DNA of 64,000 nt from a virus (IMGVR_UViG_3300025597_000005); one strand, 5' to 3'; counted from the first letter of the stretch, positions 3,943 through 25,240 are shown. The notes: a model not told the origin generated them from the letters alone. A program made the numbers and translations.

Positions 3943-4432
3943 CAATAACCAATCGTTCTCTTTATTCATTATTGTGGACGTAGCAATGATCGGCATTTTC
4001 ACGTGAACCTCTCTCGGCAAGACGGAGGTCAGAATTGGAATCCTAGGCAGCGATCTTGCACGAAAATCCCACATAGAAACGTCACTCAAACTGCGCGTCT
4101 AGGTGTGAAATTCGCGCCCAAATCCTGCGTATAGGCGTATAGGCACGTTTCAAAGCGATCATTGTGAAAATCAAAGGTAATCACTGTGGCTCAACGAAAA
4201 AACCGCGCTGTAATCTCATCATGCAACCCACAGTGAACACCGATTACCACTACTATACGCAATGATCACGTTTCGATATAGTGTCAATAACGTTTCAAGA
4301 ACCTATAGACTATTGTGATCTTTGCTGTATAATGAGCTTGTTAAACACATTTCACCATTGCCCACGGCGTATAACCGTGTTGAAATCCTGAAAACCGTAT
4401 AGTAACCGGCCCCAGCCACGAAAGAATAGATT

Positions 4433-4768
4433 ATGAAATTGCTTTGTTGTGCTAAGTGTAATCAAGTCTTTAGCCTTAGCTATACTTACGCTGAGTGTAA
4501 GGGCGGGCACGGGGGTGGGCAATATATCGATAACCTCAATGCGAAAGTCTGGGGTGACCCTACTGAGGTGTTCGTATTGGGCTTCGCTAACAGTAGTCTT
4601 GTTCGTGCATTGCGTGAACAGATCAACTTCGGGGATTCAGAAGAGAAGATGTACTATCCCGGTGGCCTAACGCCGAAGGGTCGTGAATTCTTGGCATTTA
4701 TCATTCCCGAAGCAGCGACGTCTGTGGAGCGTGTGGCAGTTCGCTTTGATCCTGTGGAAGTTAAGTAA
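4433..4768 (+). CDS. hypothetical protein with CxxC (possible Zn-binding)
   Basis: MKLLCCAKCNQ...EC; promoter at 4306-4333. Confidence 0.7.
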   Translation: MKLLCCAKCNQVFSLSYTYAECKGGHGGGQYIDNLNAKVWGDPTEVFVLGFANSSLVRALREQINFGDSEEKMYYPGGLTPKGREFLAFIIPEAATSVERVAVRFDPVEVK

Positions 4769-4818
4769 TGTGATGTAACCTCTTGCTATATAGTGAAGGA
4801 CTCGCTATAGTAGAGGTT

Positions 4819-5001
4819 ATGCGTATTGAACCATGTGATACAGAAGATCCTCCGGGCACTTGTGTGGATTGGAAGGCCAGTCCCTATGTGGTGCTACAGG
4901 TAGTGGATAAACTCTTGGCTAAGCACGGCCTGGAGGTTGTCGGCTATGATCTTCAATCAGATGAGTACTGCTTCGATATTCAAAAGAAGGAAACGAAATG
5001 A
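4819..5001 (+). CDS. hypothetical early protein
   Basis: ATG 4819 just after the promoter at 4783-4811. Confidence 0.6.
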   Translation: MRIEPCDTEDPPGTCVDWKASPYVVLQVVDKLLAKHGLEVVGYDLQSDEYCFDIQKKETK

Positions 5002-5369
5002 AGAAGGCAATTGCAAAGAAGTGGGTCGAGGCTCTGCGGAGTGGTGACTACAAGCAGGGAAAGAGTGCTCTTCGCACCGTGGGCCAGAACGGCAAGACGA
5101 GTTTCTGCTGCCTGGGTGTCCTGTGTAATCTTCATGCCCAAGCGCATCCGCAGATTGCGAGGACTCAGACGCATCCGGAAGTCTATCTGGGTGAGACGGA
5201 ATTCCTGCCTCGAGAAGTCATGGAGTGGGCCGGTATGAAGACTTACGATGGTTCCTACGGCGAGGAAACCGCGTACGGTCAAGAAGACGACCTGACCCAG
5301 GACAATGATTCGGGCATGAGCTTCAAGCGAATCGCCACCATCATCGAGAAGCACGTCGACGAACTGTAA
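4998..5369 (+). CDS. hypothetical phage protein (KWVEALRSGDYKQG...CCLGVLC)
   Basis: RBS AAGGA, clean ORF, motif typical of small phage proteins. Confidence 0.8.
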   Translation: MKKAIAKKWVEALRSGDYKQGKSALRTVGQNGKTSFCCLGVLCNLHAQAHPQIARTQTHPEVYLGETEFLPREVMEWAGMKTYDGSYGEETAYGQEDDLTQDNDSGMSFKRIATIIEKHVDEL

Positions 5370-5440
5370 TTCACAATGTCGTTGACTGCGGGTGGATATA
5401 CCTGCATAATACAGACATTGCAACACAGACAGGGCGTAAG

Positions 5441-5734
5441 ATGAGCTACATCGCATACCACAAGGAAACGACGCGCTACCTGGCCAACCACAAGGGTGTG
5501 AAGACGGACAAGACTGCCTTTGCGACCCAGACCGGAGCACTGTCAGCGATTACTCGTGAAGCCAATCGCGGTGTGATCAAGGCCGAGGACTTCGCGGTGC
5601 TGGAGTCCTCCGAGTTCGCCAAGATCGAGAAGACGGAGACTGTCAAGTCGCTGATGGGTGGCAAGGAAGTGGTGCAGTCGGTGAACACGCCGTGGTGCTG
5701 CAATCCGGCCAGCGAAACCTACTGGTCTACCTGA
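5441..5734 (+). CDS. hypothetical early protein (NTPWCCNPASETYW)
   Basis: Directly downstream of element 5382-5440. Confidence 0.8.
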   Translation: MSYIAYHKETTRYLANHKGVKTDKTAFATQTGALSAITREANRGVIKAEDFAVLESSEFAKIEKTETVKSLMGGKEVVQSVNTPWCCNPASETYWST

Positions 5735-5784
5735 ACAGGATAATCCATATAGAAGGTTCCGTCCGCCTACCTGATCTACAAGTC

Positions 5785-5997
5785 ATGAACTTCTTCACCT
5801 TCTTTACCTTCAACCGCTGGTCGGTGCTGGCAACGGCCATAATGGCCCCGCTGGTGGCACTCATGCCCTGGAACACGGGTCCCTACTGGCTGGATGCAAC
5901 GGCTATCTTTATCTGCACGATCATCGTCCAACTGCTGGTGGTGGGCCTGCAGAAGTTCTTCAACTACTGCTACAAGCGGTGGTTCCAACCTAAGTAA
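5785..5997 (+). CDS. small membrane protein
   Basis: Two hydrophobic segments; followed by a terminator. Confidence 0.6.
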   Translation: MNFFTFFTFNRWSVLATAIMAPLVALMPWNTGPYWLDATAIFICTIIVQLLVVGLQKFFNYCYKRWFQPK

Positions 5998-5999
5998 CC

Positions 6000-6108
6000 A
6001 ACAAAAACAAGAACAAGGAGCTTCGTGCTCCTTTTCTTGTGGGCTCTTCTATAAAACACCCATCCAGCCTTGGGGCCACCCTCCCCAGCATAGCTGATCG
6101 AACCTATG
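6000..6108 (-). ncRNA. candidate small RNA (copy 1)
   Basis: Minus-strand promoter TCGACA(6142-6137)-17-TATACT(6119-6114), terminator at about 6001-6040. A 23-nt core is shared with 19237-19259. Confidence 0.45.
6001..6040. terminator. bidirectional intrinsic terminator
   Basis: AAGGAGC-TTCGT-GCTCCTT hairpin with T-rich tails on both strands. Confidence 0.7.
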
Positions 6109-6229
6109 CATACAGTATACCCAACTTTTCATTATGTGTCGATCACTCTTACAAACTGTTACATCTTTCAAATAGGGTTGACTTTATAATGGAGAGGTAG
6201 TACACTTATATTATTGCAAGGGGACACCC

Positions 6230-6430
6230 ATGGATGATATCTATCTCAATCGCAGCCAGACTCGGGAAGAGTTCTGGTCTCCCACAGGCCTGACGCAAGC
6301 GCAGCTGGCCGAAGAGCGCAAGAAGAATGAAGAGCAGCGTCAGTGGAACGAAAACACTGCTAAGGGCAGTGACCAGCGACCGATCCACGACGGCGGCAAC
6401 TGTTCGCACGGCTACAGGGACATCATCTAG
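6230..6430 (+). CDS. hypothetical early protein
   Basis: Promoter 6178, RBS GGGGA. Confidence 0.7.
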   Translation: MDDIYLNRSQTREEFWSPTGLTQAQLAEERKKNEEQRQWNENTAKGSDQRPIHDGGNCSHGYRDII

Positions 6431-6485
6431 TAGTAGACCAACAAGGATCCTTGTGCTATAGTATTAGCACAGTAAGGAGCACATC

Positions 6486-6800
6486 GTGACCGACAAAGGC
6501 AAGAGTCTGCAACAAATGGTTAACCAGCTCAATGCAGAGATGCGTAAGCTGGAGATCCTGACTTCCAAGTTCGATCACGACACAATCTGGGAGGTATACA
6601 AGACCAATGCCGACATCGAACAACTCGAGCTCGTGCATCAAGGCCTGGATCGTGACATTGCTGAGAGCAAGATGACACGCCTTTTCGCCGCGTCGGGTTA
6701 CGAACAAGACCTGATGCTCCACAACCGCAAGACGCAGATGCCCATGGCTCTGCTGTTCAGCGAACGCACCAAACAAGCTCGCGGGGAATGTCAAGGATGA
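6486..6800 (+). CDS. hypothetical early protein
   Basis: Element 6434, RBS AAGGAG, GTG start. Confidence 0.75.
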   Translation: MTDKGKSLQQMVNQLNAEMRKLEILTSKFDHDTIWEVYKTNADIEQLELVHQGLDRDIAESKMTRLFAASGYEQDLMLHNRKTQMPMALLFSERTKQARGECQG

Positions 6801-6991
6801 AGAAGGTTCTGATCCTCTACCGGAAGAGCAAGTTCTATCCGGATCCGGTCGTCTGCTGCGCCATTGAAGTCATCGACGGCAGCTACGTCGATGCCATGCG
6901 TCAACGGGATGCGTGGGTGCATAACTTCACGCAGAAGTTTCCCGAGTTCAAGGATGCAACCTTTTCAACCGAAGAAACTGAAGTGATCTAG
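6788..6991 (+). CDS. hypothetical protein
   Basis: Overlaps previous stop. Confidence 0.65.
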   Translation: MSRMKKVLILYRKSKFYPDPVVCCAIEVIDGSYVDAMRQRDAWVHNFTQKFPEFKDATFSTEETEVI

Positions 6992-6999
6992 GAGTAATC

Positions 7000-7182
7000 A
7001 TGCTCTGCTCACATGGTGTGCCGTACGAGTCCCGCTGCTCTCACTGTGCCCAAGAGGCTATGGAAAGAGTGCGAAATCAGGCGAAATTTACACCGCCCAA
7101 CAAGGACGACGTGTCCGAGCAGCAGAGACATGACTTCTGGGCACAGATCTATCGTCAAGGTGTTGACAAGCCGGTCTACTGA
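7000..7182 (+). CDS. hypothetical Cys/His-rich protein
   Basis: RBS AGGAG; CSHG...CSHC. Confidence 0.65.
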   Translation: MLCSHGVPYESRCSHCAQEAMERVRNQAKFTPPNKDDVSEQQRHDFWAQIYRQGVDKPVY

Positions 7183-7197
7183 CCACATAATACATAC

Positions 7198-7608
7198 ATG
7201 GAACAGCACCTGCGTGATCAGATCAAGCAAGTAGCGGATGAAGTTCGTTACTGGGCTGAATGCACTGCACCCAGTCTGGGGCATGACGAAGAAAGCCTCA
7301 GTGGCATGTGTGCCATTGCTAGTGCCGAACTGTGGAAGAAGTTGCGCATGCGTAGCATCCACGGCACCTTGCATGTGGCCGAACACGACTGGGGTTCGCA
7401 TGCCTTCCTGATCATCGACGACCATGTGGTTTGCGTCACGGGCACTCAGTTCCCCGAGTTTCGAAATCAACCTGTCGTGATCATCCACAGCAAGGAAGCT
7501 GAGGTTCACGAATACTATCAATCGATGTGGGAGTTCATGACTCCCAAAGAGCTCCGCGAGTGGCAGCAACGCTATCGCTGGCCCAAGAACCAAACCGCAA
7601 CGGCATAA
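7198..7608 (+). CDS. hypothetical protein, possibly transglutaminase/papain-like; leaderless
   Basis: GMCAIAS...HAFL...VCVTGTQF; ATG 6 nt after CATAAT. Confidence 0.7.
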   Translation: MEQHLRDQIKQVADEVRYWAECTAPSLGHDEESLSGMCAIASAELWKKLRMRSIHGTLHVAEHDWGSHAFLIIDDHVVCVTGTQFPEFRNQPVVIIHSKEAEVHEYYQSMWEFMTPKELREWQQRYRWPKNQTATA

Positions 7609-7617
7609 AGATTTCAA

Positions 7618-7875
7618 ATGAGCGTCCAGCAGAGACTCAGTGTTGCCCAAGAGGCGATGCAGATGACTCCGTACACGCACCGGTATGCCGGCCGTGAACT
7701 CATGCTATTCGAGAAGTGGGAGATCCTTTTCGAAGGGCAGGTGGTTCGTACGATCACCGGGGTCGACAACGACTTCATGGTCCACATGATCTGGATGATG
7801 AATACTGCCTACTCCTGCGGTTACCTGAGCGGCCACACGGCAGGGCAATTTTACAAGGAAGAACCTGCGGTCTGA
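7618..7875 (+). CDS. hypothetical protein
   Basis: Clean ORF in gene run. Confidence 0.65.
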   Translation: MSVQQRLSVAQEAMQMTPYTHRYAGRELMLFEKWEILFEGQVVRTITGVDNDFMVHMIWMMNTAYSCGYLSGHTAGQFYKEEPAV

Positions 7876-7972
7876 TTTGGATTCCTAAATAACAAAAATA
7901 AATCAGAAACCCGGATTGACCTTTGTGCGCAATTTGCGTACACTATACGCATACACACAGAAGGATCTGTAA

Positions 7973-8212
7973 ATGCTGCACAGTGTCGAACAAGTCAAGG
8001 CCGCTATGGCTCTTAGCACGGAAGAGCTGCGTCGGATTACCGAATCAAGCGGTTACCGCAGCGAAGGCTACAAGAGCGCAGAGTGCTGGGGCATGAACGA
8101 AAGCGGCCGCTTTGTGTACTTCGTCGAATATATCGATAGTACCAATGGCAACGGCATGTGCGAGGTCTACATCACCATCAAGGCCGGTGGCGGCTACGAA
8201 TTGGAGTTCTGA
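7973..8212 (+). CDS. hypothetical early protein
   Basis: Promoter 7916, RBS AAGGA. Confidence 0.75.
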   Translation: MLHSVEQVKAAMALSTEELRRITESSGYRSEGYKSAECWGMNESGRFVYFVEYIDSTNGNGMCEVYITIKAGGGYELEF

Positions 8213-8214
8213 TC

Positions 8215-8523
8215 ATGAGCATGCGTAAGCATAAGCGAGTCGTGCAGGCTCGCATGAAGCACGACCTGTTCTACAACTTCCCCATCGGGCAATGGTTGGA
8301 TCGCTTCAAGATGATCCCCGTGTCGCCCGAAGTGAAGAGGCTCTCCGAGGAATTCTGCAAGCAGATCTTCGAAAACGGCAAGACGATCGCCATCGATGGT
8401 GTCGACTTCTTCATCACCGAACCCCACATCCAGCACGAGATCTGGAAGCGTATGCAACAAGAAAAGCTGATCGGCAACGAACTGCCGGGCAGCAACGTGG
8501 TTTTCGAAGGAGCTACTAACTGA
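8215..8523 (+). CDS. hypothetical protein
   Basis: ATG 8215 after GGAG. Confidence 0.7.
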   Translation: MSMRKHKRVVQARMKHDLFYNFPIGQWLDRFKMIPVSPEVKRLSEEFCKQIFENGKTIAIDGVDFFITEPHIQHEIWKRMQQEKLIGNELPGSNVVFEGATN

Positions 8524-8610
8524 GTTTCATCTTCCTGTAGACCAGAACCCTCAGTCCTGCTATAGTAATGACACTGCAATAACGCAGCAACAAACGTGGA
8601 GCACACTGCA

Positions 8611-8796
8611 ATGAAGCGTCTTTTCCGAGTCAACAACGAGTTCTTCGGCGACAAGAAGGCTGCCAAGGCGGCCCGTGGCGAACCGACCAAGAAGGCCCAG
8701 ACCGAGACCGTGAACGGCCGCACGATCCACTACCCGGCGACCTACGCCAGCAAGGTGGAACTGGGCCCGGATCACCGCCACTACGCCGGCCGCTGA
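8611..8796 (+). CDS. small basic hypothetical protein
   Basis: Element 8538; RBS GGAG. Confidence 0.75.
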   Translation: MKRLFRVNNEFFGDKKAAKAARGEPTKKAQTETVNGRTIHYPATYASKVELGPDHRHYAGR

Positions 8797-8828
8797 ACCC
8801 CCAACCGTCAACGACAAGGAGAACTGCA

Positions 8829-9086
8829 ATGCTGAAGATCACCGTCAAGCGCGAGAAGGTCACCATCGACGACCGCCGTGCCGTCATCGTGCTGGCCCGC
8901 GGCCGGAAGCCGGCTGACATCGCCAAGGTCCCGCAAGAAGCGTTCCTGCGCCAGCAGCTGAAGGCGCGCATGGGCATCGCCAAGGACGAACCGGCTTCCG
9001 AATCCATCAAGGAAGCGGCCAAGCAGATGGCTGCCGCACTGGCCCCGGCTGCTACCCCGGCCAAGGAAGAAGCACCGGCGGCGTGA
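8829..9086 (+). CDS. small Ala/Lys-rich protein
   Basis: RBS AAGGAG; followed by a GC hairpin and T-tract (9093-9160). Confidence 0.75.
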   Translation: MLKITVKREKVTIDDRRAVIVLARGRKPADIAKVPQEAFLRQQLKARMGIAKDEPASESIKEAAKQMAAALAPAATPAKEEAPAA

Positions 9087-9219
9087 GTTTCCGGGGGAGG
9101 CGTCGCATGGGCCTGTGTGCCCCGGACACGAGTTCCGTAGCCTCCCCCATTTTTCTTCCTTCTGTTGACAACAGGCCCCAACGCCTGCATAATACAGACA
9201 TCGCAACAAGGACTGCAAC

Positions 9220-9690
9220 ATGCTGCCGAATCGAATCCCCACCGGGCTGCGAAACACCACCATCCCGAATCCCGTGGACCTCAAGGGCAAGCGCGGCTAC
9301 CGAAACGCCTACCAGGGCAGTGTCGATGGCTACGACTTCCTGAAGCAACGCCAGAACTTCGAGGACCTGCAGGCACGCCTGGCCGAAAGCGGCGAGATGC
9401 TGGTCGAAGTGGCCGGTGTGATGTACGACGGTGACAACGGTTACAACCACCGCTTCGTGGCAACGAACAAGTCGGGCACCATCGTCTGGCACAAGTACGT
9501 CGGATACGCTGCCCAGAGCGGCCAGAACCACGTCTTCATCCACGGTCGTCGCATCAAGGTCAGCGTCTTCCTGAAGCTGGGCCTGGGCGAACGCCATGCG
9601 CTGATCTCGGGCAAGGAAGACTTCATCAACAAGGTCTTCACCAAGAAGCGCATGAGCTTCCTCGACGAAGCTGGTTCGCTCTGGTGCTGA
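9220..9690 (+). CDS. hypothetical early protein
   Basis: Element 9165. Confidence 0.8.
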   Translation: MLPNRIPTGLRNTTIPNPVDLKGKRGYRNAYQGSVDGYDFLKQRQNFEDLQARLAESGEMLVEVAGVMYDGDNGYNHRFVATNKSGTIVWHKYVGYAAQSGQNHVFIHGRRIKVSVFLKLGLGERHALISGKEDFINKVFTKKRMSFLDEAGSLWC

Positions 9691-9808
9691 GTTCCGAGGG
9701 GCCTGTGATCCCGATGCGCAGAACGCCGGTTGGGCCCCTCTTCTTTTCCTGTTGACAGCTGATCCCAGCGGTGCTATTATATAGACACTGCAACACACAA
9801 GGACCAAG

Positions 9809-10312
9809 ATGAAGTACGCTACGCTCATCAACGCTGTCGCTGCAATCCAAGGTGCCAGCTTCATCGGCATCGACACGCACACCGACGTCAAGCTCACCGG
9901 CGGCAAGTCCAACCCGCAGCAAGGGCGCGTCACGAAGCGCATGACGGGTGCGACGGTGATGGCCTTCACGAACCAGAACGTGAACGCCTACAAGGAAATG
10001 GTCCAACGCCGCCTGGGCAAGGAAGGCAAGGACCCGCAGGACTTCCAGCTGCACGAGCGCGCATGGGGCACCCGTGTCCCCAACATGCCCATCGTGGAGC
10101 ACAAGGGTTCCTACTACCTGGAAGTGATCTTCCTGAAGCCCGGCCAGGTCGAATACCTGCTCGACGGCGTGGTGGTCCCCGAGTCCGAAATCCAGGGGCT
10201 GCCGCCCAAGCGTGAGGCGGAGCAAGGCGGGCTCGACGACAAAGTCATCCTGCGTGACTTCAAGGCGGAGAGCATCACCGAGCTGCGCATCAACGGCCAA
10301 GCCTTCAACTAA
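9809..10312 (+). CDS. conserved-type phage hypothetical protein (GGKSNPQQGRVTK...RAWG...HKGSYYL)
   Basis: Element 9752. Confidence 0.85.
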   Translation: MKYATLINAVAAIQGASFIGIDTHTDVKLTGGKSNPQQGRVTKRMTGATVMAFTNQNVNAYKEMVQRRLGKEGKDPQDFQLHERAWGTRVPNMPIVEHKGSYYLEVIFLKPGQVEYLLDGVVVPESEIQGLPPKREAEQGGLDDKVILRDFKAESITELRINGQAFN

Positions 10313-10321
10313 GGAGCAGGC

Positions 10322-10582
10322 ATGCTGACTATCGCCAAGCTGGCCGAACAGTTCCCCATCCGGGAACGTCGTACCACCCAACCGGGCTGCATTAGCAAGC
10401 CCGTAACGGGTTGGATTCCGTACGCCTTCTACGAGGCACACCTGGCGGAGATCAAGGCTGCACGCAAGGCCCACCCCAGCAAGACCCGTGCCTACTACAG
10501 AGGGCCGCGTGCATGGACGGGCGCTTCGACCACCGCGGTGAAGAACGCACGGAGCGTGGTCATCTACGCAGAAGGTCGCTAA
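10322..10582 (+). CDS. hypothetical protein
   Basis: RBS AAGGAG. Confidence 0.75.
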   Translation: MLTIAKLAEQFPIRERRTTQPGCISKPVTGWIPYAFYEAHLAEIKAARKAHPSKTRAYYRGPRAWTGASTTAVKNARSVVIYAEGR

Positions 10583-10687
10583 AAAAGCAAGGGCATATTC
10601 CTGCCTAAGGTTTTCACCTAAAGGTTGACGTGCGATTCCTGTAGTGCTATTATATAGACACTGCACAAACACAAACGGGAACCCAAG

Positions 10688-10840
10688 ATGATCTTCCTGT
10701 CCCACATCTACCGTCAGTCGCACACGGACTTCTTCTGCGCACAGCAGGACCAAGTGTACGGCAACCTGGTGCGAATCCCCACTCCCCAAAACGAAATCGT
10801 GGACCTCCAGTGCATGTACTGGATGGGCGGCGAACTGTAA
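10688..10840 (+). CDS. 50-aa hypothetical protein (not in ORF track)
   Basis: Element 10625; MIFLSHIYRQ...WMGGEL. Confidence 0.65.
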   Translation: MIFLSHIYRQSHTDFFCAQQDQVYGNLVRIPTPQNEIVDLQCMYWMGGEL

Positions 10841-10852
10841 AAGGAACACATC

Positions 10853-11269
10853 ATGCTGCAACAACTCATTCGTGAAGCGGTGCGTCAAGCCCGGGAAGTG
10901 GATTCCGAGGTCAGCTTCCGTGCCAGCTACGGCGGCCGCGGCATGTATGACCGCCGCTGCATCGGTGTCGTGGGTTCCAACTCGGAATGCCAGCGCGTGA
11001 TTGCCAAGAGCATCGTGATGCTTCGTGAGAAGCTCAAGACGGTGCAGCTGGGTTCCAGCGAGGAGGAGCAGGACAAGGTGTTCGAGGAAGCGGTGATGAC
11101 GCTGACGGAACCCTGCGAGGACTCCATGGGCCGCAGCGTGATCTTCTACTGGCCCGAGCTGTCGGCCATCGACACCAGCGATGAAATGCCCGATGTGCGG
11201 GACTTCGAGGACTTCGAGGAGTACCAAGAAGCCCTGGCCGAATGGAAGGATGCGCAGGAAAAAGTGTAA
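10853..11269 (+). CDS. hypothetical protein (SYGGRGMYDRRCIGVV...DSMGRSVIFYWP)
   Basis: RBS AAGGA; stop lies in the TGTAAC of the next element. Confidence 0.85.
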   Translation: MLQQLIREAVRQAREVDSEVSFRASYGGRGMYDRRCIGVVGSNSECQRVIAKSIVMLREKLKTVQLGSSEEEQDKVFEEAVMTLTEPCEDSMGRSVIFYWPELSAIDTSDEMPDVRDFEDFEEYQEALAEWKDAQEKV

Positions 11270-11332
11270 CAGTGGTAGACTGCAGGAGCCGATTCCTGCA
11301 TAATACAAACACTGAGACACAAGGAGTGCAGC

Positions 11333-11659
11333 ATGACTGACATGAACGAACTGGTCGACCACTACCTGGACCAAGAAGGTTGCCGCCGTACAGAAGGGCG
11401 TGCCGGTCTGGTGATGCTCGCCACCCTTTCCCAGGGTCTGGGCTACAAGGACCCCATGTACTTTGGCCAGTTGACGCCGAAGGCTTCCATGGGCGACCTA
11501 ATGGAGTTCTTCCAGGACAACCCGGGCGCAGTGCAAGCCGTGGTGGAATGGGTCAAGGAACAGCGGGCCCCCGAATGGCAGGAGAAGCTGCTGGAGATCT
11601 GCCCGGATTTCGATTCCGAGGAAGAGCTCAGCAGCCACGAGGACTATCGCCCGGACTGA
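11333..11659 (+). CDS. hypothetical acidic protein
   Basis: Element 11276. Confidence 0.8.
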   Translation: MTDMNELVDHYLDQEGCRRTEGRAGLVMLATLSQGLGYKDPMYFGQLTPKASMGDLMEFFQDNPGAVQAVVEWVKEQRAPEWQEKLLEICPDFDSEEELSSHEDYRPD

Positions 11660-11733
11660 GATGTAACACTGGTAGACAGGCGGTTCCTGGTGTTGCATAA
11701 TAAGGTCATAGCAACACAGCACAGGAGCAAAAG

Positions 11734-11988: not shown

Positions 11989-12004
11989 TCTACTGGAGAA
12001 TATC

Positions 12005-16336: not shown

Positions 16337-16338
16337 AC

Positions 16339-16921: not shown

Positions 16922-16952
16922 CAACACACGACCAACCTGCTAGGATACACAC

Positions 16953-17449: not shown

Positions 17450-17758
17450 TGTTGACCTTCCCCATGGTCTTCCTTTACCTCCTGCTCGCTTCAGTGGGCA
17501 GCGAGGTTCTACCTCCAGTGGATTATAAGGCAGTTTCCAAGGCCGAGATCCAGATTCAAGAACAGGTTCCGCCGGCAGATTCTGCAGACAAACCTTGAGG
17601 TCAGATTCGGTTTTTTGCTTGCACTTTGCAGGCGACTTTTAGCCCCTACAGCAAGAGATCAAGAGCCAATGCAGGCTCAGGTAGCAGGATCAGAATCAAG
17701 CCCCCTTGGTATTCATTGCCTTGTTGACCTGTTGCACACAACGCAGTACAATACACAC

Positions 17759-18001
17759 ATGAAGAAAGTAACCTGCACGCAGATCCTCACTGTCACGTTC
17801 GTAGGCATGTTTGTCTACGGTGCAGCAACTGGGGTCTGGGGTGCCGCACTGATGGCACTGGGAATGGCAGGCTTCGTTTACTGGGCTGATGGGTATTTTG
17901 ACCGTCAGAACCGTGCCTGGCTTCTGCAAAGGAAGCGCTCGCGTGATACACTCACTGCGATGGCGGACGAAGATTGTGAATGTAGCGGGAGCTACATGTA
18001 A
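17759..18001 (+). CDS. small membrane protein, leaderless
   Basis: TTGACC-17-TACAAT-ACACAC-ATG. Confidence 0.7.
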   Translation: MKKVTCTQILTVTFVGMFVYGAATGVWGAALMALGMAGFVYWADGYFDRQNRAWLLQRKRSRDTLTAMADEDCECSGSYM

Positions 18002-18165
18002 GAGTCTCCGAGTCGGAACTGGATTATGCTAGATGGCCGGCCGGTCTAAGACCGGTGAGAAGCTAAGCCTAATAATCCATACTCGATGGCGTGGTGTGAA
18101 CCACAAACAGGAATAGGGTGGGTACCTAAATACCCACCCTTGACCTCTACCCTTAGGTAGGAATC

Positions 18166-18363
18166 CTACAGCCCCGTCTTGTTCAGAAGGGCATCCACGC
18201 GGGTCAGTTCGGCCTCGCTTCGCGCGATGGAGTCAGGGTCCAGGCTCGTCTGCTTGACCTGGTGGCCCATCTGTGCGAGCGTCTCCCGCACGTTGAAGCC
18301 CCACTGGCTGTCGGGCAACTTCAGATGCGTCACCTGGTCGACCAAGTATACACGAACTGCCAT
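18166..18363 (-). CDS. hypothetical protein
   Basis: AAGGGGA RBS on minus strand, downstream of 18436..19017. Confidence 0.65.
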   Translation of the reverse strand: MAVRVYLVDQVTHLKLPDSQWGFNVRETLAQMGHQVKQTSLDPDSIARSEAELTRVDALLNKTGL

Positions 18364-18435
18364 CTCAGATTCCCCTTTTTAGGTGTTGCGGTCACCCGAA
18401 AAGGCCCTTGCGGGCCTTGTCCGGGATTCTGGATC

Positions 18436-19017
18436 TTAGACCCAGTACAGCTTGGCCTTCTTGGCCGCAGCCGCCTTCTCCACCAGGGCCTTGGCGTCCT
18501 CGAAGCTCAGGCCCTCGGCAACCACCGTTCCGTCGGACTTCTTGCAGACCTTGAACACCGTCTGCTCCACCGGGGCGGCCTCGTTGACCGTCACCGTCTG
18601 GACGGAGGTGTTCTCCTTGACGCCTTCCGACAGCAGCGTGCCGCTGGGGATCGCCGCCGTTTCGGCCTGCATGCGGGCGATGTGCTGCTCGCGCGTCTCG
18701 AACGGAGCGAACACCAGCGCGTCACGCGCCATCGCGGCCTTCTCGGCGTTGCTCTTGCGCCCGCCCTTCTTGTCCTCCGGGCGACCCAGGCCTTCCACCA
18801 GCGTGGGGTTGGCGGTCTTGTAGTCGATGAAGGCCGTGTTGTAGTGCGTCGCCGCGCTGGCCAGGGTGATGCCGAACTCGCTCATCAGCACCGCGATGCA
18901 GTGCTTGCGGAAGGCGGTGTTGGCCTTCTTCATGTCGGTCCCGAACTCGCCGTTGACGCGCTTGGCGTTCTCGGTGGCGAACAGGTTCTTCGCGTAGGGA
19001 CGGATGCCCTTGTCCAT
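18436..19017 (-). CDS. putative DNA-binding protein, paralog of 20963..21412
   Basis: Shared MDKGIRP, KKANT.FRK, FGITLASAATHYN, GLGRPEDKKGGRK; minus-strand element at 19087. Confidence 0.85.
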   Translation of the reverse strand: MDKGIRPYAKNLFATENAKRVNGEFGTDMKKANTAFRKHCIAVLMSEFGITLASAATHYNTAFIDYKTANPTLVEGLGRPEDKKGGRKSNAEKAAMARDALVFAPFETREQHIARMQAETAAIPSGTLLSEGVKENTSVQTVTVNEAAPVEQTVFKVCKKSDGTVVAEGLSFEDAKALVEKAAAAKKAKLYWV

Positions 19018-19199
19018 GTTGCGTTCCTTTCTGTGTACTGCGTTATTGCAGTGTCGTTACTATAGCGCGAAACAGTTCCTGCGTCAACCAATAAAGTGTA
19101 ACAGTTTCTGCCCCGCTTCGCTGCGCGACACACATCGTGCAGCGCATGTTCGTAACTTTAACGCCAGAAACATCCACTGTCTACCATTGTTACACCTCC

Positions 19200-19272
19200 T
19201 TACATCTTGTGGATATGTGGATAACTTTGGACACGGCCAGCCTTGGGGCCACCATCCCCCTCTGTTCGACCC
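19200..19272 (-). ncRNA. candidate small RNA (copy 2)
   Basis: Minus-strand promoter TTGACA(19304-19299)-16-TATAAT(19282-19277); core GGGGA.GGTGGCCCCAAGGCTGG shared with 6064-6086. Confidence 0.4.
19208..19224 (-). promoter_or_regulatory. tandem DnaA-box-like sites
   Basis: TGTGGATAA (19216-19224) is a perfect TTATCCACA; TGTGGATAT (19208-19216) has one mismatch. Confidence 0.45.
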
Positions 19273-19394
19273 CTCCATTATAGCGCAAACAGGATCCTTG
19301 TCAATCCATTGTTACGTCTGTTACAGTGTAACAATGGTTGACGGGTGGAAGAATGCTTGTTATAGTTACGACACTGCAAAACACAGAGGCGTAC

Positions 19395-19622
19395 ATGAAA
19401 CTGCAGGAGTTCATTGAGTTCTGCAAGCCCCTGCCCAATACAATGGATGACAGGGAGAGGGTCTACCTTGTCTACTATGACGACAAGGAGCTCTGCGAGG
19501 AGATCTACGCGGAAGCAGAAGGCAGGCTGGGTGTCAACCTCGAGGAAACCCCTGAGCCCATGCGGGCTTCGCTGGAGGCGATTGGGCTGCACTACGGCGT
19601 GGAGATTCTTGCTGATTGGTGA
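19395..19622 (+). CDS. hypothetical acidic protein
   Basis: Element 19338. Confidence 0.75.
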   Translation: MKLQEFIEFCKPLPNTMDDRERVYLVYYDDKELCEEIYAEAEGRLGVNLEETPEPMRASLEAIGLHYGVEILADW

Positions 19623-19700
19623 GATGTAACGAGTGTAACAGTGGTAGACGAAAGTCTGCCCCTGTTGCATACTACGAACATCGCAGCAAGGAGCAACGAA

Positions 19701-20009
19701 ATGGAACTTCAACTCAACGCATACAGCACCCAAGGGCTCACCCGCTACCCCGCCCGTGGCCTGCTGGTGGGCGAGGCGAGCACGCTGGGCCTGAAGCCCG
19801 GGCATGTGTGGGATAGGCTCTACGACGATGCGTGCGACGAGGGTATCGCGCTTCGCAGCCACAAAACGGGCATGGTGTCAACCTGGCATGTGGTGGAAAC
19901 CATCACGCAGGATGGCGAGGTGCTGGGCTGGATGTTGAAGCCCACAACGGAGTCCGTGTGGCGCATGCCCGAGCTCCGCAACTACCAACTCAACATCGTC
20001 AACGACTGA
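19701..20009 (+). CDS. hypothetical protein
   Basis: Element 19645, AAGGAG. Confidence 0.8.
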   Translation: MELQLNAYSTQGLTRYPARGLLVGEASTLGLKPGHVWDRLYDDACDEGIALRSHKTGMVSTWHVVETITQDGEVLGWMLKPTTESVWRMPELRNYQLNIVND

Positions 20010-20193
20010 AGCAAGGGGCCTAAGCGCCCCTACAAGCGTTCGCGCAGCCATCAGCAGAGTCTAACACAGGCCCTGCTGGTCGCCGCTTGTAGGGCTTCTA
20101 AAACACCGGGCTGTTACATTTGCTTACATCTTGCCCGTTGACGGAATGCTCCAAAGGTCACATAATACAAACATCAACAACACGGAGCGAGAG

Positions 20194-20295
20194 ATGCTGC
20201 TGATCAAGATCCTCCTGGCCTGGTTTGCACTGTCCTGCCTGTTCGCCTGGGGCTGGGCCCGCTTCCAAAAGGGCATCAACCCGAGAGGGGAATGA
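20194..20295 (+). CDS. 33-aa membrane peptide (not in ORF track)
   Basis: Element 20138; MLLIKILLAWFALSCLFAWGWARF. Confidence 0.6.
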   Translation: MLLIKILLAWFALSCLFAWGWARFQKGINPRGE

Positions 20296-20360
20296 TGTAA
20301 CAGTGGTAGACAGGGAGGAAACTCCCTGCTACAGTATAGACACTGCAACAAGGAGTTCAC

Positions 20361-20471
20361 ATGCAACTGATCCACGAAATCATGCCCCTGGTCGGAGTCG
20401 GTGCTACGGGCCTGCTGGCGCTGCTGAGCGTCGCGGTGATGCTGGAGATGGCGCTGGAAGGCTCCAAGTGA
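20361..20471 (+). CDS. 36-aa membrane peptide (not in ORF track)
   Basis: Element 20307, AAGGAG. Confidence 0.6.
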   Translation: MQLIHEIMPLVGVGATGLLALLSVAVMLEMALEGSK

Positions 20472-20599
20472 ACAACAGCAAGCAGATCCGCGAAGAAGCT
20501 GCCCGCCTGCGGGATGAGCTCATCTCCCACCGCGAGTACCTGCGCCTGCTTGCACGCTGCGGCGTGAAGCGTCAGCCCACGCACGGCTGGGTGGCCTGA
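20468..20599 (+). CDS. 43-aa hypothetical protein
   Basis: GTGA overlap with previous gene. Confidence 0.5.
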   Translation: MNNSKQIREEAARLRDELISHREYLRLLARCGVKRQPTHGWVA

Positions 20600-20668
20600 A
20601 AGATGTAACACTGGTAGACGCAGGAAAGTTTCCTGCTATACTAAGAACATCGCAACAAGGAACACGCA

Positions 20669-20872
20669 ATGAGCATCACTGCAAAGACCGACCTCCAGCT
20701 GTTCGAAATGCTCTGGAAGGCCCCGAAGGATGCAACCCTGGGGCAACTCCTGGAGCGCAAGCTGGCGGGCGATGAACTGGTCGCGCGGCACGGCGCCACC
20801 ATGGCCCTGAGCATGTTCGGCGGCTGGTGCATGGCGGTGCAGAAGGATCCCGAGCTGGTCCCGAAGAAGTAA
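20669..20872 (+). CDS. hypothetical protein
   Basis: Element 20615. Confidence 0.75.
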   Translation: MSITAKTDLQLFEMLWKAPKDATLGQLLERKLAGDELVARHGATMALSMFGGWCMAVQKDPELVPKK

Positions 20873-20962
20873 CAAGATGTAATAGCGGTAGACGGAAGAG
20901 TCCCAATCCGCTATTATACAAACACTGCAAACAACGCAGCAACGCAAACAAGGAAGCAGATC

Positions 20963-21412
20963 ATGGACAAAGGAATTCGCCCGTTCGCCCGAAACAAGTT
21001 CGTGGAACTCAACGAACTGCGCCGCAAGGGTGCCGCCCCGTACGACGGCAAGAAGGCCAACACCCTGTTCCGCAAGGACGTGATCGCGTCCCTGATGGAG
21101 GCGTTCGGCATCACGCTGGCGTCCGCTGCAACGCACTACAACGACGCCTTCCGCTTCATCAAGGAGCAGAACGCCGAGCTGGTCAGCGGCCTGGGCCGCC
21201 CGGAGGACAAGAAGGGCGGGCGCAAGAAGAAGGTGGTGGCGGAAGCCGCTCCGGAAGTCACCCGCGAGCAAGTGCTGACCAACATGCTGGCGGCCACGGG
21301 TACGGTGACCCCGGCGCTGCAGGCCGAGGTGGAAGAAGCGCAGCAGGCGGTGGAGCAGACGCTGGAAGCCGCGTGCGGCGAGGCCAAGGCGTTCGAGGAG
21401 GCGCTGGTCTAA
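20963..21412 (+). CDS. putative DNA-binding protein, paralog of 18436..19017
   Basis: Same motifs as the paralog; element 20889. Confidence 0.85.
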   Translation: MDKGIRPFARNKFVELNELRRKGAAPYDGKKANTLFRKDVIASLMEAFGITLASAATHYNDAFRFIKEQNAELVSGLGRPEDKKGGRKKKVVAEAAPEVTREQVLTNMLAATGTVTPALQAEVEEAQQAVEQTLEAACGEAKAFEEALV

Positions 21413-21483
21413 GCAGATGTAACAGTGGTAGACGGGCGGAGCAATCCGCCCTATACTACATTCATCGCAACAAGGAGCGCAAG

Positions 21484-21672
21484 ATGTACACCAAGGACAG
21501 CATCGCCGAGGTACCCACTGGCTGGTCCATCGACATCCTGGACCCGGATGGTGACTCGATCGCGACCCTGGATTTCGTCATGACGAAGGGGCAGCTCTAC
21601 AGCGACTACGTGGAACGCTGCCTGCATGATCGTGCAGATGCCCTCCTGTCCCACCTGAACCGCGGCCTGTAA
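21484..21672 (+). CDS. hypothetical protein
   Basis: Element 21429, AAGGAG; MYTKDSIAEV. Confidence 0.75.
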   Translation: MYTKDSIAEVPTGWSIDILDPDGDSIATLDFVMTKGQLYSDYVERCLHDRADALLSHLNRGL

Positions 21673-21746
21673 CGAAGTGCAACAATGGTAGACAGGGGCT
21701 CCGACCCCTGCTATTATACAAACACTGAAACACAACGGAGCAACAG

Positions 21747-21869
21747 ATGATTTTCGATCAAGCTCAACTCAAGGCCTGGTGGGATCACGTCTTCCGCAGC
21801 GTGGAGCAAGGCTTCCGCCCGCTCACGTTCGACCAGTTCCGCATCCGCACGCTGCTGGTGAAGTTCTGA
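21747..21869 (+). CDS. 40-aa hypothetical protein (not in ORF track)
   Basis: Element 21689, GGAG. Confidence 0.6.
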   Translation: MIFDQAQLKAWWDHVFRSVEQGFRPLTFDQFRIRTLLVKF

Positions 21870-22038
21870 TGCGCTGCGAACTGTAAGCGAAAGCCTGTGC
21901 GCAGGCCGGAGCAGGTGGATTGTGCCACACCTGCCGTAAGAAGTCAATGGGCGTCGCGTAACACTTGCGAGGCGGATAGCGTAACCGTCAGATGTAACAG
22001 AGGTAGACCTGTGGCGTCGGAAGTGCAATAATAGCCAC

Positions 22039-22221
22039 ATGGATGATACAAAAGCACTCAACAAATGGCTTGCGAGCCGAGAACCCCGATGGGCGCTCAA
22101 GCGGTGTCTAAGGGAAGCCCAGGCTCGCTGCAGACAAGAGCTCAAGGAACTCAAGCCCCGAGCAATCCTCACCGGCGAGGTGGTCGCAGCACAGGACGTG
22201 AAGTTTCCCACCTGGAAGTAA
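22039..22221 (+). CDS. hypothetical protein, leaderless
   Basis: TAGACC-17-AATAAT-AGCCAC-ATG. Confidence 0.65.
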   Translation: MDDTKALNKWLASREPRWALKRCLREAQARCRQELKELKPRAILTGEVVAAQDVKFPTWK

Positions 22222-22282
22222 CAGAGGTAGACAGGACACATCCAACGCTGCATAATATACACATAGCAGCAAGGAGCACAAG

Positions 22283-22546
22283 ATGGCAAAGGTCAGCATC
22301 CCGGAGAAGATCAAGAAGGCGTTCGAGGACTACGGGCACTCCTACACGCTGGACCAGGCAGTGGCGGTGCGCGACGAACCCAGCCGTGACTGGTACGCGA
22401 TCCTCTTCAAGGTCGAGGGCGAGCTGTCTGCGGTGGACTTCCAGCGCGACATCAATGGCGACTGGGAAGTCAGCAACGACTACGTCGGCCCCTTCGACTC
22501 CATCAAGGAGTTCAAGGACGAGAAGCTCGTCAGCACCTGGTACTGA
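22283..22546 (+). CDS. hypothetical acidic protein
   Basis: Element 22228. Confidence 0.8.
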   Translation: MAKVSIPEKIKKAFEDYGHSYTLDQAVAVRDEPSRDWYAILFKVEGELSAVDFQRDINGDWEVSNDYVGPFDSIKEFKDEKLVSTWY

Positions 22547-22612
22547 GATGTAACAGTGGTAGACAGGCATCCTGTGATGCCCTATACTACGAACATCAAC
22601 AAGGAGTTCACC

Positions 22613-22963
22613 ATGCACCAACAGATCCGCGGCGTCATCAGCCAACTCAAGTGGTTCCCCGGCCAGGTGGTGCTGGTTGATCTCACCGCGTCGGAGCAGA
22701 GCCCGCTGGGACGGCTCGTGGGGCGGCTGTACTACGACACCGACGCCATGGAGGTGGTTGACAGGGCCTGCCGCACGGGCTATCCGCACAACGGTGGCTT
22801 CCACACCTTCCAGTTCAAGGGCCCGGCCCGGGATGCAGTGGCCATGATGGAACTCTTCAAGGAGACCCTGGAGGATCGTACACGAACTGACGAGGAACGT
22901 CAAGTCTGCAACGAGTTCAGTTACGTCTCGCAGGAGATCCTGGCAGGCCGCCGCAAGGTGTAA
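22613..22963 (+). CDS. hypothetical protein
   Basis: Element 22560, AAGGAG. Confidence 0.8.
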   Translation: MHQQIRGVISQLKWFPGQVVLVDLTASEQSPLGRLVGRLYYDTDAMEVVDRACRTGYPHNGGFHTFQFKGPARDAVAMMELFKETLEDRTRTDEERQVCNEFSYVSQEILAGRRKV

Positions 22964-23025
22964 CAGTGGTAGACACAGGGCTCCGTTGGTCACATAATAA
23001 GAACATGGACAACACGGAGCACACC

Positions 23026-23373
23026 ATGCAAGTCGAGCAAACCGAACTGCAAGAGCTGGAGTCGATCTACTGCGACATGCACAAGGATGTCTACGGCGTC
23101 AAGGCCCGCTGGTACCGTGCAGAGAGCGTGGAGCAAGCCCGCAAGGACATCGACCGCCTGAGCGAAGAGCTCCGCGTGCAGATGGAGCAGGACAAGGTGT
23201 TCCAGCAGGAGGCCATCAAGGCTTTCGAGGAGCTCGCTGCATCCTTCGGCGGCGTGGAGACGGCGAAGCGGTGGCAACACCAGGCCTACGGCACGGACGG
23301 CGATGACGAAGCCCTGGAGTACCGCATGGGCCTCCCGTTCGGTTACTTCAAGGAGCAGGCCGCAACAGTGTAA
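23026..23373 (+). CDS. conserved-type phage hypothetical protein (DMHKDVYGVKAR...EYRMGLPFGYF)
   Basis: Element 22970. Confidence 0.8.
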   Translation: MQVEQTELQELESIYCDMHKDVYGVKARWYRAESVEQARKDIDRLSEELRVQMEQDKVFQQEAIKAFEELAASFGGVETAKRWQHQAYGTDGDDEALEYRMGLPFGYFKEQAATV

Positions 23374-23434
23374 CAGTGGTCGACCAAGGAGGGCTCCTGC
23401 TGCATAATACGAACATCGCAGCAAGGAGCCCAAG

Positions 23435-23566
23435 ATGGAACAGATCAAAGTCCGGGTGTTTGGTCAGTGGCACGATGCGGAGTGGGACGAGGTGACAGGC
23501 CTGGTCTACTTCAATGGCATGCATGCCAGCCTGGAATGCTTCGAGCACTACCTCCGCGTCGTCTAA
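23435..23566 (+). CDS. 43-aa hypothetical protein (not in ORF track)
   Basis: Element 23380, AAGGAG. Confidence 0.65.
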   Translation: MEQIKVRVFGQWHDAEWDEVTGLVYFNGMHASLECFEHYLRVV

Positions 23567-23575
23567 GGAACTACC

Positions 23576-23731
23576 ATGCGTGAACTCCCCATCCACCTCC
23601 TGACCTGCATGCTGCTGGTCACGCCCCCGGGCATCATCCTGTTCATGTGCAAGCTCACCGACGGGGCCATCGAAGGCCCGGGCGAAGTGTACGACACCTT
23701 CTACGACCTGGTCGACTACTGCCTGAGCTGA
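23576..23731 (+). CDS. 51-aa hypothetical protein (not in ORF track)
   Basis: AAGGA RBS. Confidence 0.55.
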   Translation: MRELPIHLLTCMLLVTPPGIILFMCKLTDGAIEGPGEVYDTFYDLVDYCLS

Positions 23732-23733
23732 TC

Positions 23734-23841
23734 ATGGAATTCCACAACGCCTGGTCGCAGGCCCTGCTCGATGAGTATAAGGGTCACAACGGGTCCCTCT
23801 GGGACTTCGCGGAGATGTTCTGCATGGGCCGCGAGATGTAA
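23734..23841 (+). CDS. 35-aa hypothetical protein
   Basis: Stop in TGTAAC. Confidence 0.5.
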   Translation: MEFHNAWSQALLDEYKGHNGSLWDFAEMFCMGREM

Positions 23842-23902
23842 CAGTGGTCGACAGGAGAACTCCTTCTTGCTATAGTAACGACACTGCAACAAGGAGCCCA
23901 AG

Positions 23903-24163
23903 ATGATCGAGCGCAACGTGCATCACCAAGGTCGTACCCCCAGCCGCACCTGCATCGCCGCACCGGAGTTCGACAAGAACAGCGGCAAGTGGTCTGCGTG
24001 CTTCGAGACGTGGCGCGGCATCCCGGGCGACGAGTACAAGGCCTTCACGTGCGGCAGCGCCCCTCTGTTCAGCAGCGAAGCGGAAGCCTATGCCGCAGCA
24101 GACCGTGCGCTGGACACCCTGCAGGCCCTGGATCGGTTCCCCAACATGTGCGAGATGTGGTGA
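23903..24163 (+). CDS. hypothetical protein
   Basis: Element 23848. Confidence 0.8.
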   Translation: MIERNVHHQGRTPSRTCIAAPEFDKNSGKWSACFETWRGIPGDEYKAFTCGSAPLFSSEAEAYAAADRALDTLQALDRFPNMCEMW

Positions 24164-24235
24164 GATGTAACAGTGGTAGACAGCAGGTACCCATCCTGCT
24201 ACTATACAAACACTGCAACACAACGGAGCAACGAA

Positions 24236-24484
24236 ATGCAAGTCGGAACCCTGTTCACCCGCGTCATCCCGCAAGCTCGCAACCGTGGCTTCATGCTCAT
24301 CGCGGGCTTCGAAGCAGCCCTGTCGCAGAAGACGATGGTGCGCTACGTGACGCTCAGCAGCCTGGCCAACGAGGCCATCTCCAAGGCCATGGAGGAAGTC
24401 ACTGCCATGCTGGGCGCCAAGGAAGTCCAGGACGTGACCAAGGCTGATGTGCTGAAGCGCATCGAGAAGGCGAACGCCTTCTAA
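24236..24484 (+). CDS. hypothetical protein
   Basis: Element 24177. Confidence 0.75.
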   Translation: MQVGTLFTRVIPQARNRGFMLIAGFEAALSQKTMVRYVTLSSLANEAISKAMEEVTAMLGAKEVQDVTKADVLKRIEKANAF

Positions 24485-24500
24485 GTAAGGGCACACCAAC

Positions 24501-24668
24501 ATGCAAGCGCAAACCCCAGGGGAGAAGGAGGCCTATCAGAAGGGCGAGGCCATTGGTGCCAAGTCGCCTGACTGCTCAGGCTTCCTGCGGAACCCGTACC
24601 CTGAGAAGACCCGCCTGCACACCCTGTGGGGCCTGGGCTGGTGCAAGGGGTTCAGCGAAGCCCCGTAA
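24501..24668 (+). CDS. Rmf (ribosome modulation factor)-like 55-aa protein (not in ORF track)
   Basis: MQAQTPGEKEAYQKGEAIGAKSPDCSGFLRNPYPEKTRLHTLWGLGWCKGFSEAP has the AY.+G...G / NPY / W..GW pattern. Confidence 0.55.
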   Translation: MQAQTPGEKEAYQKGEAIGAKSPDCSGFLRNPYPEKTRLHTLWGLGWCKGFSEAP

Positions 24669-24854
24669 GGGCCCTACAGCAAGCAAACGGAGAAGCCCTG
24701 CTACCAGAGTAGCGACCCACGGAAGCGACAGCGTACAGGGCTTCTAACCAATGTTCAACCACTCCCCGGAGAGATGTAACAAAATGTAAATGTGCTTGCA
24801 CAGTGAGCTCCATTGCGCTATTATATAGACACTGCAACACAACGAAAGCGCAAC

Positions 24855-25067
24855 ATGAGCAACGTGCAAAGCAAGAAGCAAGAAGCCCTCGCAAAGCTGC
24901 AAGCGGCGCGGGCCCTGCTGGACCAAGTGGGTGCGCTGATGGCGGACGCAACGGAGGTGCTGGAGACGGTGGGGGCATACACGGAGCACGGGGTCACGGA
25001 CGTGTGCGGCGTGGTGCGTGACAGCATTGGTGAGCTGGAGGAACTCGTCAACGACTACGTGAACTAA
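24855..25067 (+). CDS. hypothetical helical protein
   Basis: Element 24796. Confidence 0.75.
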   Translation: MSNVQSKKQEALAKLQAARALLDQVGALMADATEVLETVGAYTEHGVTDVCGVVRDSIGELEELVNDYVN

Positions 25068-25079
25068 CACAGAACACGG

Positions 25080-25100
25080 AGGGGCGCAAGCCCCTTTACA
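25080..25100 (+). terminator. intrinsic terminator
   Basis: AGGGGC-GCAA-GCCCCT-TT. Confidence 0.6.
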
Positions 25101-25240
25101 TCTTGTTACACACAGTGAGGTAGAAGCTGAGATGTAACAAAATGTAAATGATGTAATAAAGGTTGCGCAAATCCCAGTCAGCCTGTATAATTTTTAGGAG
25201 GTGGGATCTGAATGACCGCGGGCAAGCCGCAACTAAAAAA

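Follow-up and report, generated by a model that had tools for sequence, protein, structure and literature searches.

What does a short regulatory module do when it stands, little changed, before almost every small gene along some 20 kb of a phage genome? The question is raised by the viral sequence IMGVR_UViG_3300025597_000005, of which a stretch of 64,000 nucleotides (the window) was analysed. At 5367-24844 the window carries a GC-rich island, delineated by a position weight matrix (PWM) and by gene calls, with about 60 small open reading frames (ORFs) and 34 plus-strand copies of a 60-70-bp module, here called the linker; the same module precedes nearly every small ORF or short operon of the island. 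A first-pass annotation had described an integron-like array of self-contained cassettes, in which the linker would express each gene and also serve as the site of reshuffling. The analysis reported here points, with a probability of about 0.7, to an early-gene region in which host-type promoter linkers double as short-homology recombination seams.

The repeated array itself is real, since searches with the PWM, with the sigma70 consensus and with the linker head all give counts or scores far above those of shuffled sequence. The PWM, 64 nt long and made from the clear linker copies of the window, gives at a threshold of at least 13 bits 34 plus-strand matches starting from 5367 to 24781 and one minus-strand match at 19102; the window linkers score 13-70 bits, compared with a top score of 8 bits in 20 shuffles of the island, and no linker above the threshold is found in the other 43 kb of the window. 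An independent scan for the sigma70 consensus returns 48 promoter-like sites in 5200-25190 (6.6 ± 2.3 in shuffles), and 49 copies of the head sequence TGTAACAGTGG, allowing up to two mismatches, are counted in the window where 15.9 ± 3.4 are expected. The six examples named in the first-pass annotation all contain linkers (PWM starts 11261, 12260, 20292, 22545, 23833 and 24162; 40-70 bits). Its figure of about 45 copies was too high, the total being about 35-42 once degenerate and minus-strand copies (three or four of the latter) are added, and its unit size of mostly 0.2-0.6 kb agrees only in part with a linker-to-linker spacing of 169-1614 bp (median 540 bp). The first and last linkers coincide with the edges of the island. 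Terminator-like sites are not enriched within it (19 vs 18.6 in shuffles), and because terminators are absent between the cassettes the description as self-contained has to be dropped: the units are probably modules of promoter, ribosome-binding site and ORF with read-through rather than insulated cassettes. A terminator-like hairpin with a T-rich tail, found by the sigma70/terminator scan, lies at the array's end (25078-25107, plus strand).

The linker is composed of five parts: a head, a −35 box, a 17-nt spacer, a −10 box and a CA-rich leader with AAGGAG and ATG. The −35 hexamer has the form T[TAC]GAC, an A directly follows the −10 hexamer, and the leader, ACAYYGCAACA..AAGGAG, brings the start codon to a median of 28 nt from the −10. 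The information profile bears out the earlier claim of conservation past the two hexamers, which extends to the head, to the A after the −10 and to the ACAYYGCAACA of the leader. The claim of a conserved upstream sequence holds for some copies: the 15-nt head is TGTAACAGTGG in 19 of the 34 window linkers and in 81 (41%) of a family set of 196 linkers from 16 arrays, and the remaining 115 have an AT-rich, TTCAAATAG-like head upstream of the −35. Of the TGTAACAGTGG-headed linkers, 52 have a called gene ahead of them, and in 21 of these the gene ends at the TAA of the head; an ORF stopping at the head TAA is seen at the linkers 22955-23018 (52 bits) and 23365-23428 (54 bits). Judged from its sequence, the linker is, as had been proposed, a strong host-type promoter joined to a translation start, with presumably early timing and predicted start sites.

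A minority of linkers depart from this layout at the 3′ end. In 25 of the 196 the ATG lies 5-10 nt past the −10 (exactly 7 nt in 21 of the 22 listed), and 22 of these 25 close ATGs open an ORF of at least 30 codons, compared with 52% for ATGs in general. This suggests that about one linker in eight gives a leaderless mRNA with its start site at that A. In the window, examples are the linkers at 7148-7211 (ATG at 7198, 7 nt after the −10; 27 bits), 17709-17772 (ATG at 17759; 21 bits) and 21989-22052 (ATG at 22039; 27 bits), together with the ATG at 23005; other linkers have the A of ACAY in this place.

Related arrays were recognized by scanning with the linker motif. An exact linker 18-mer occurs in two IMG/VR contigs, a 152.7-kb fragment and a 369-kb genome assembled as a circle, the latter having a GC content of about 0.45-0.61 over some 66 kb and at least 42 linkers across about 50 kb of that stretch. 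Metagenome contigs scanned with a 16-mer gave many chance matches, from which the PWM separated the real arrays, present in more than 25 contigs; the distant relatives G001 and G002 each carry an island of this kind at the corresponding place in the genome. Apparent tandem linkers in G002 were discarded, because this circular assembly overlaps itself there by 127 bp. No match was found when the island and its flank were compared by megablast with 50,697 phage records. An identical order of cassettes in relatives would have counted against the first-pass annotation, and the order is far from identical: sequences of roughly 65-80% nucleotide identity have a few cargo genes in common, on a partly collinear backbone with insertions, losses and translocations, and over all arrays the gene after a homologous gene is also homologous in only 8 of 119 comparisons.

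The places where this turnover occurs carry much of the argument. Pairs of 82-92% identity have 20 internal homology breakpoints, of which 13 fall no more than 8 bp from a linker, a zone that makes up 7% of the sequence; 10 of the 13 are at linkers in both sequences. Five events could be resolved to the base, and three of them have junctions inside linkers, at different positions. A one-cassette insertion or deletion (indel) of 224 bp (21993-22216, plus strand), absent from relative L045, has its junction in a stretch of 15 bp, GTAACAGAGGTAGAC, common to the leaderless-type linker at 21989, its left partner, and the linker at 22213-22276 (52 bits), its right partner. A 347-bp indel between L050 and L123 is joined at the −35 of two linkers. 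In L089 and L106 the flanks are conserved but the cargo between them is unrelated, homology stopping after the −10 of the left linker and returning in the spacer or −10 of the right one. The suggested role as a reshuffling seam thus agrees with the breakpoints but not with a fixed site, the junctions being at the head, the −35 and the −10, and gain, loss and replacement are linker-bound in three of the five events but not in the other two. Because junction positions vary within the linker, short-homology recombination is preferred to a fixed site.

A second line of evidence comes from the spacers. The sequence of a 17-nt spacer is not constrained by sigma70, yet 51 linker pairs differ at no more than 2 of the 17 positions, compared with 0.03 expected from column frequencies; since convergence on the sigma70 consensus cannot explain them, these spacers imply copying or exchange of linkers. 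For 26 of the near-identical-spacer pairs the downstream genes were called, and in 23 of these the two ORFs are unrelated, whether the linkers lie in one array or in two; promoter cores are decoupled from cargo. Longer identities are also common in the window, where 22 linker pairs share at least 20 bp exactly, the longest match being 29 bp.

In the explanation proposed here, each linker would be a near-consensus sigma70 promoter read by host RNA polymerase and fused to a short, unstructured, CA-rich leader with AAGGAG and ATG, or, in about one case in eight, followed by an ATG at the predicted +1. Almost every small gene would be expressed on its own right after infection, and transcription, meeting no terminators, would read on through the array. 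A module every 0.5 kb or so would supply dispersed short homology, in the form of exact 15-29 bp matches between copies, at which the phage recombination and replication machinery might cross over or switch template; cassettes would be deleted, inserted or replaced, and promoter cores copied from gene to gene. The analysis shows the anatomy of the linker, the copy number and its specificity, junctions located in linkers and the decoupling of promoter cores from cargo, while activity as a promoter, early timing, the participating enzymes and any circular intermediates are inferred. The parallel with T4, together with the gp46/47 homologues in the window, suggests that the agent would be the phage's own recombination machinery. 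In this reading, expression is the primary role of the linker, and its role in recombination is a consequence of repetition.

Several observations weigh against a part for the linkers in recombination. A 20-bp 3′ ORF remnant (21867-21887, plus strand), whose linker and ORF body are intact in L045, records a deletion in the window of a linker and most of an ORF for which no second linker was used, and another difference between L050 and L123, the presence of an operonic gene, lies at a TGA microhomology and involves no linker. Adjacency was kept at 4 of 90 linker junctions and at 4 of 29 operonic junctions, a difference that is not significant (P = 0.098) and that rests, like the other synteny counts, on crude gene calls. 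The 20 breakpoints are not all independent events, and breakpoints that leave genes intact must be intergenic, which here mostly means in a linker, so the enrichment may in part reflect selection. Contigs of 99.3-100% identity from several samples are collinear over the island, with no cassette change; turnover of cassettes is slow, because even strain-level relatives are fully collinear. The linkers might accordingly be only strong early promoters and translation starts, turnover proceeding by illegitimate recombination of which the gene-sparing breaks survive, a view that the two resolved events without linkers, the adjacency test and the strain-level collinearity would all suit. It has no ready place for three junctions inside stretches identical in both parental linkers, or for the excess of near-identical spacers before unrelated genes, and is judged unlikely, if still to be taken seriously.

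Integron cassettes are promoterless, are expressed from one promoter, Pc, and are moved by the tyrosine recombinase IntI at attC and attI sites. The array resembles them as a row of small unrelated genes with a repeated element between, whose content varies among relatives. It differs in that every unit has its own promoter and junction positions vary; no attC-like conserved pair of inverted core sites is detected in the linker (fixed-column pairing test, z at most 2.8), and no integrase or recombinase domain appears in the precomputed Pfam matches of the called genes (window 1-32.5 kb). Scans of the ten largest cargo proteins likewise found no recombinase family, and the label integron-like is not retained.

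Some linkers have an inverted repeat within the spacer, which is a real but facultative feature. Window spacers have a mean best stem of 4.27 bp (3.07 ± 0.13 expected), and stems of at least 5 bp are found in 36% of window copies vs 5.6% of random island 22-mers; across the family the figures are 18% and 4.3%, with few in G002. The register of the stem varies and fixed-column covariation is weak (z again at most 2.8), so the repeat is taken as real only in the sense of an excess per sequence, and a conserved spacer hairpin is not claimed. In about one third of the window linkers (e.g., 12281-12296, 13291-13308 and 21434-21451) the −35/−10 spacer is filled by a perfect or near-perfect palindrome of 14-18 bp, often as CAGG...CCTG with a variable inner part; candidate explanations are a leaky terminator with the −10 as U-tract, a protein-binding site or a by-product of recombination.

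A binding protein for such sites could come from a paralog family that occurs in 7 of the 16 arrays searched and is present in several copies in the longer ones. Its window members are encoded at 20963-21412 (plus strand, 149 aa) and 18436-19017 (minus strand, 193 aa), and homologues occur in G002 (five copies), L102 (three), L022, L093, L062 and G001. The proteins combine a predicted three-helix N-terminal domain (predicted local distance difference test, pLDDT, above 90) with a near-invariant GLGR(P/A) and a basic KKGGRKKK resembling an AT-hook, and on this basis the family is a candidate DNA-binding protein; it has no match in Pfam, PHROG or, by fold search at E at or below 0.001, the PDB. 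A dedicated, integron-like site-specific system could then be imagined, in which a phage recombinase or DNA-binding protein, with this GLGRP and basic-motif family as candidate, acts on the TGTAACAGTGG head or on the spacer palindrome and so excises and inserts cassettes. Conservation of the head beyond the needs of a promoter in 81 of 196 linkers, the clustering of inverted head copies at promoter hubs and the AT-hook-like motif of the conserved paralogs speak for it. The differing junction positions, the 59% of linkers without a TGTAACAGTGG head, the lack of a recombinase domain in the Pfam matches and a paralog fold search without a recombinase or DNA-binding match make it very improbable.

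The identity of the phage gives the preferred reading, of promoters that also act as recombination seams, a closer precedent. Downstream of the array lie homologues of a T4-type baseplate wedge, hub/lysozyme, the late sigma factor gp55 and gp47/gp46. By its wedge protein, Pseudomonas phage PA5oct is the best cultured relative (46.7% amino acid identity), ahead of other jumbo phages, and the gene order is that of the PA5oct left end: small plus-strand genes, tail genes, a giant virion protein and the wedge on the minus strand. On this evidence the window comes from the left part of the genome of a jumbo phage that resembles PA5oct and has a T4-type core, and the island is probably a hyperplastic early-gene region that is part of, or beside, a long terminal repeat. 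A 3261-aa ORF (39787-49572, minus strand) sits where PA5oct has its giant virion structural protein and has only weak Pfam matches, CBM_5_12 and Rcc01698_C; the N4-like or crAss-like identity that it prompted was rejected in view of its T4-type neighbours and this position.

The T4-type core also makes apt the earlier comparison with PeSLs (promoter early stem-loops), each of which consists of a strong sigma70-like promoter with an adjacent upstream stem-loop terminator and an AT-rich region (PMC2839356, PMC4122927). PeSLs are situated between ORFans in hyperplastic regions, where they mediate indels and are able to form mini-circles (PMC2839356, PMC4122927); they have been described in RB49/phi1, PST/T4 and nt-1/KVP40 (Arbiol et al. 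2010, PMC2839356; Comeau et al. 2014, PMC4122927), and the RB49 region has eight in about 5 kb (PMC2839356). Like them, the linker is a small regulatory module repeated between ORFans in a hyperplastic region of a phage with a T4-type core, with a near-consensus sigma70 promoter of 17-nt spacing (here by sequence), a Shine-Dalgarno and ATG at its 3′ end, and indel or replacement junctions between relatives that fall in the module and for which short homology suffices. It differs in lacking the upstream stem-loop terminator, no stem-loop being found in the linker head upstream of the promoter, and its inverted repeat, if any, is inside the −35/−10 spacer; in 41% of linkers the GC-containing TGTAACAGTGG head replaces the AT-rich region, and the leader is conserved. 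Linkers are also denser (34 in 20 kb), belong to the PA5oct lineage and form a GC-rich island in an AT-rich genome. The array appears to work like a set of PeSLs and is best filed as a variant of that kind, not as an integron analogue in mechanism.

In PA5oct itself, 105 genes lie in a terminal repeat of 39 kb (Lood et al. 2020, PMC7318152); many of them are strongly transcribed, 5 min into infection, from TTGAC/TATAATA promoters by the host polymerase, which is rifampicin-sensitive (PMC7318152). The island shares with this repeat its position in the genome, upstream of the genes for the giant virion protein and the baseplate, as well as many small plus-strand genes of unknown function and TTGAC / TATAATA host-polymerase promoters. 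Promoter function and early timing in the window are, by this analogy, well-founded inferences. PA5oct differs in having few such modules, with six weak matches to the linker model, each before a GC-rich patch in otherwise 25-33% GC DNA; its terminal repeat is mostly of this composition, no cargo homologues were found in it, and no shuffling role is described there.

The composition of the island invites further readings. GC content is 58% at about 5.3-24.9 kb compared with 38-40% in the rest of the window, with a sharp shift, and GC content at third codon positions (GC3) is about 0.7-0.9 for called island genes vs 0.25-0.45 in the flanking small-gene arrays and structural genes. Host-like codon usage of the earliest genes and import from phages of a GC-rich host are both possible causes of the GC3 split. 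An assembly chimera or a recent single block transfer would account for the jump from 38% to 58% GC and would make the array uninformative on this phage, and is hardly credible in that both GC junctions recur at 99.3-100% identity in independent JGI, ENA and Logan assemblies, across samples and pipelines, G001 and G002 have islands of the same kind in the same place, and PA5oct has its small GC-rich patches behind similar promoters in the terminal repeat. A quite unlikely proposal is that the array is a gene-capture platform specific to the PA5oct-like lineage, in which a portable promoter and leader would be copied onto acquired GC-rich genes with host-like codon usage, these would be expressed early, before phage tRNAs and late functions, and the AT-hook-like paralog and the palindromes would be active in exchange; if true, it would be a functional integron analogue run by homologous recombination. 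Scans of the window for tRNAs and Rfam families gave no matches.

With promoters that double as recombination seams, the PeSL idea of regulatory modules as such seams would be extended from classical T4-like to PA5oct-like jumbo phages, and an unusually clean signal, with roughly 200 copies across 16 arrays, permits statistics beyond the original phage pairs, such as those on promoter-cargo decoupling. The modules are also tied to a composition split (GC3 about 0.85 in the island vs 0.3-0.4 elsewhere in the genome), from which follows the testable hypothesis that early accessory genes of AT-rich phages of GC-rich hosts keep host-like codon usage. In practice, the linker could be used as a search motif for arrays of early or anti-host genes in uncultured jumbo phages and, as a predicted promoter, as a natural promoter/leader part for expression work.

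The cargo is mostly of unknown function, the domains seen being a weak SprT-like match and one domain of unknown function. The SprT-like 316-aa protein follows the linker at 12260-12323 (61 bits), which has a 16-bp spacer palindrome, CAGGAACCGGTTCCTG, and a conserved 167-aa protein (9809-10312), with no homologue in the GTDB species genomes, follows that at 9737-9800 (48 bits). Two cargo proteins have distant homologues in phages of Aeromonas, Pseudomonas and Sinorhizobium and give no clue to the host. The 149-aa paralog lies behind the linker at 20874-20937 (60 bits).

The other plus-strand linkers without special features are located at 5367-5430 (52 bits), 8523-8586 (38 bits), 9150-9213 (58 bits), 10610-10673 (50 bits), 11658-11721 (63 bits), 13975-14038 (68 bits), 14717-14780 (55 bits), 15128-15191 (48 bits), 15753-15816 (64 bits), 16052-16115 (67 bits), 16605-16668 (48 bits), 19630-19693 (56 bits), 20123-20186 (31 bits), 21674-21737 (57 bits), 22545-22608 (40 bits), 23833-23896 (61 bits) and 24162-24225 (70 bits). 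Spacer inverted repeats of 7 bp are present in those at 11261-11324 (62 bits, with a TGTAACAGTGG head), 13272-13335 (46 bits), 20292-20355 (59 bits) and 21414-21477 (59 bits), and one of 5 bp in the weak linker at 6419-6482 (14 bits). The copy at 14428-14490 has a shortened leader and was missed by the PWM and found by regular expression and consensus scan, that at 20600-20662 has a 16-nt spacer (PWM and consensus scan), and the final one, at 24781-24844 (43 bits), has a degenerate −35 (TTGCAC).

Minus-strand copies are concentrated in a divergent hub at 19039-19386, where three minus-strand promoters and one plus-strand linker (19323-19386, 40 bits) lie within 350 bp, with TGTAACA boxes in both orientations. 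The three are a linker ahead of the 193-aa paralog (19039-19102, 35 bits), a promoter with a TGTAACAATGG head (19155-19194; head search and consensus scan) and a promoter matching the consensus at 12 of 12 positions (TTGACA-16-TATAAT; 19277-19318; regular expression and consensus scan). The hub promoters are predicted to drive an inverted module at 18100-19330, which a strong minus-strand terminator ends at 18140-18115. On either side of the island, AT-rich arrays (1-3950 and 25340-29800) consist of small paralogous genes arranged in long operons, in which stop and start codons overlap and promoters are few, unlike the one promoter per gene of the island. Several independent assemblies break inside the island: ERZ27257446 k141_334309 stops at about 21870, which is the polymorphic insertion site seen in L045, and Ga0116255_10000262 begins at about 11258, at a linker. 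Such contig breaks at cassette borders hint at population heterogeneity or at repeat-induced breaks.

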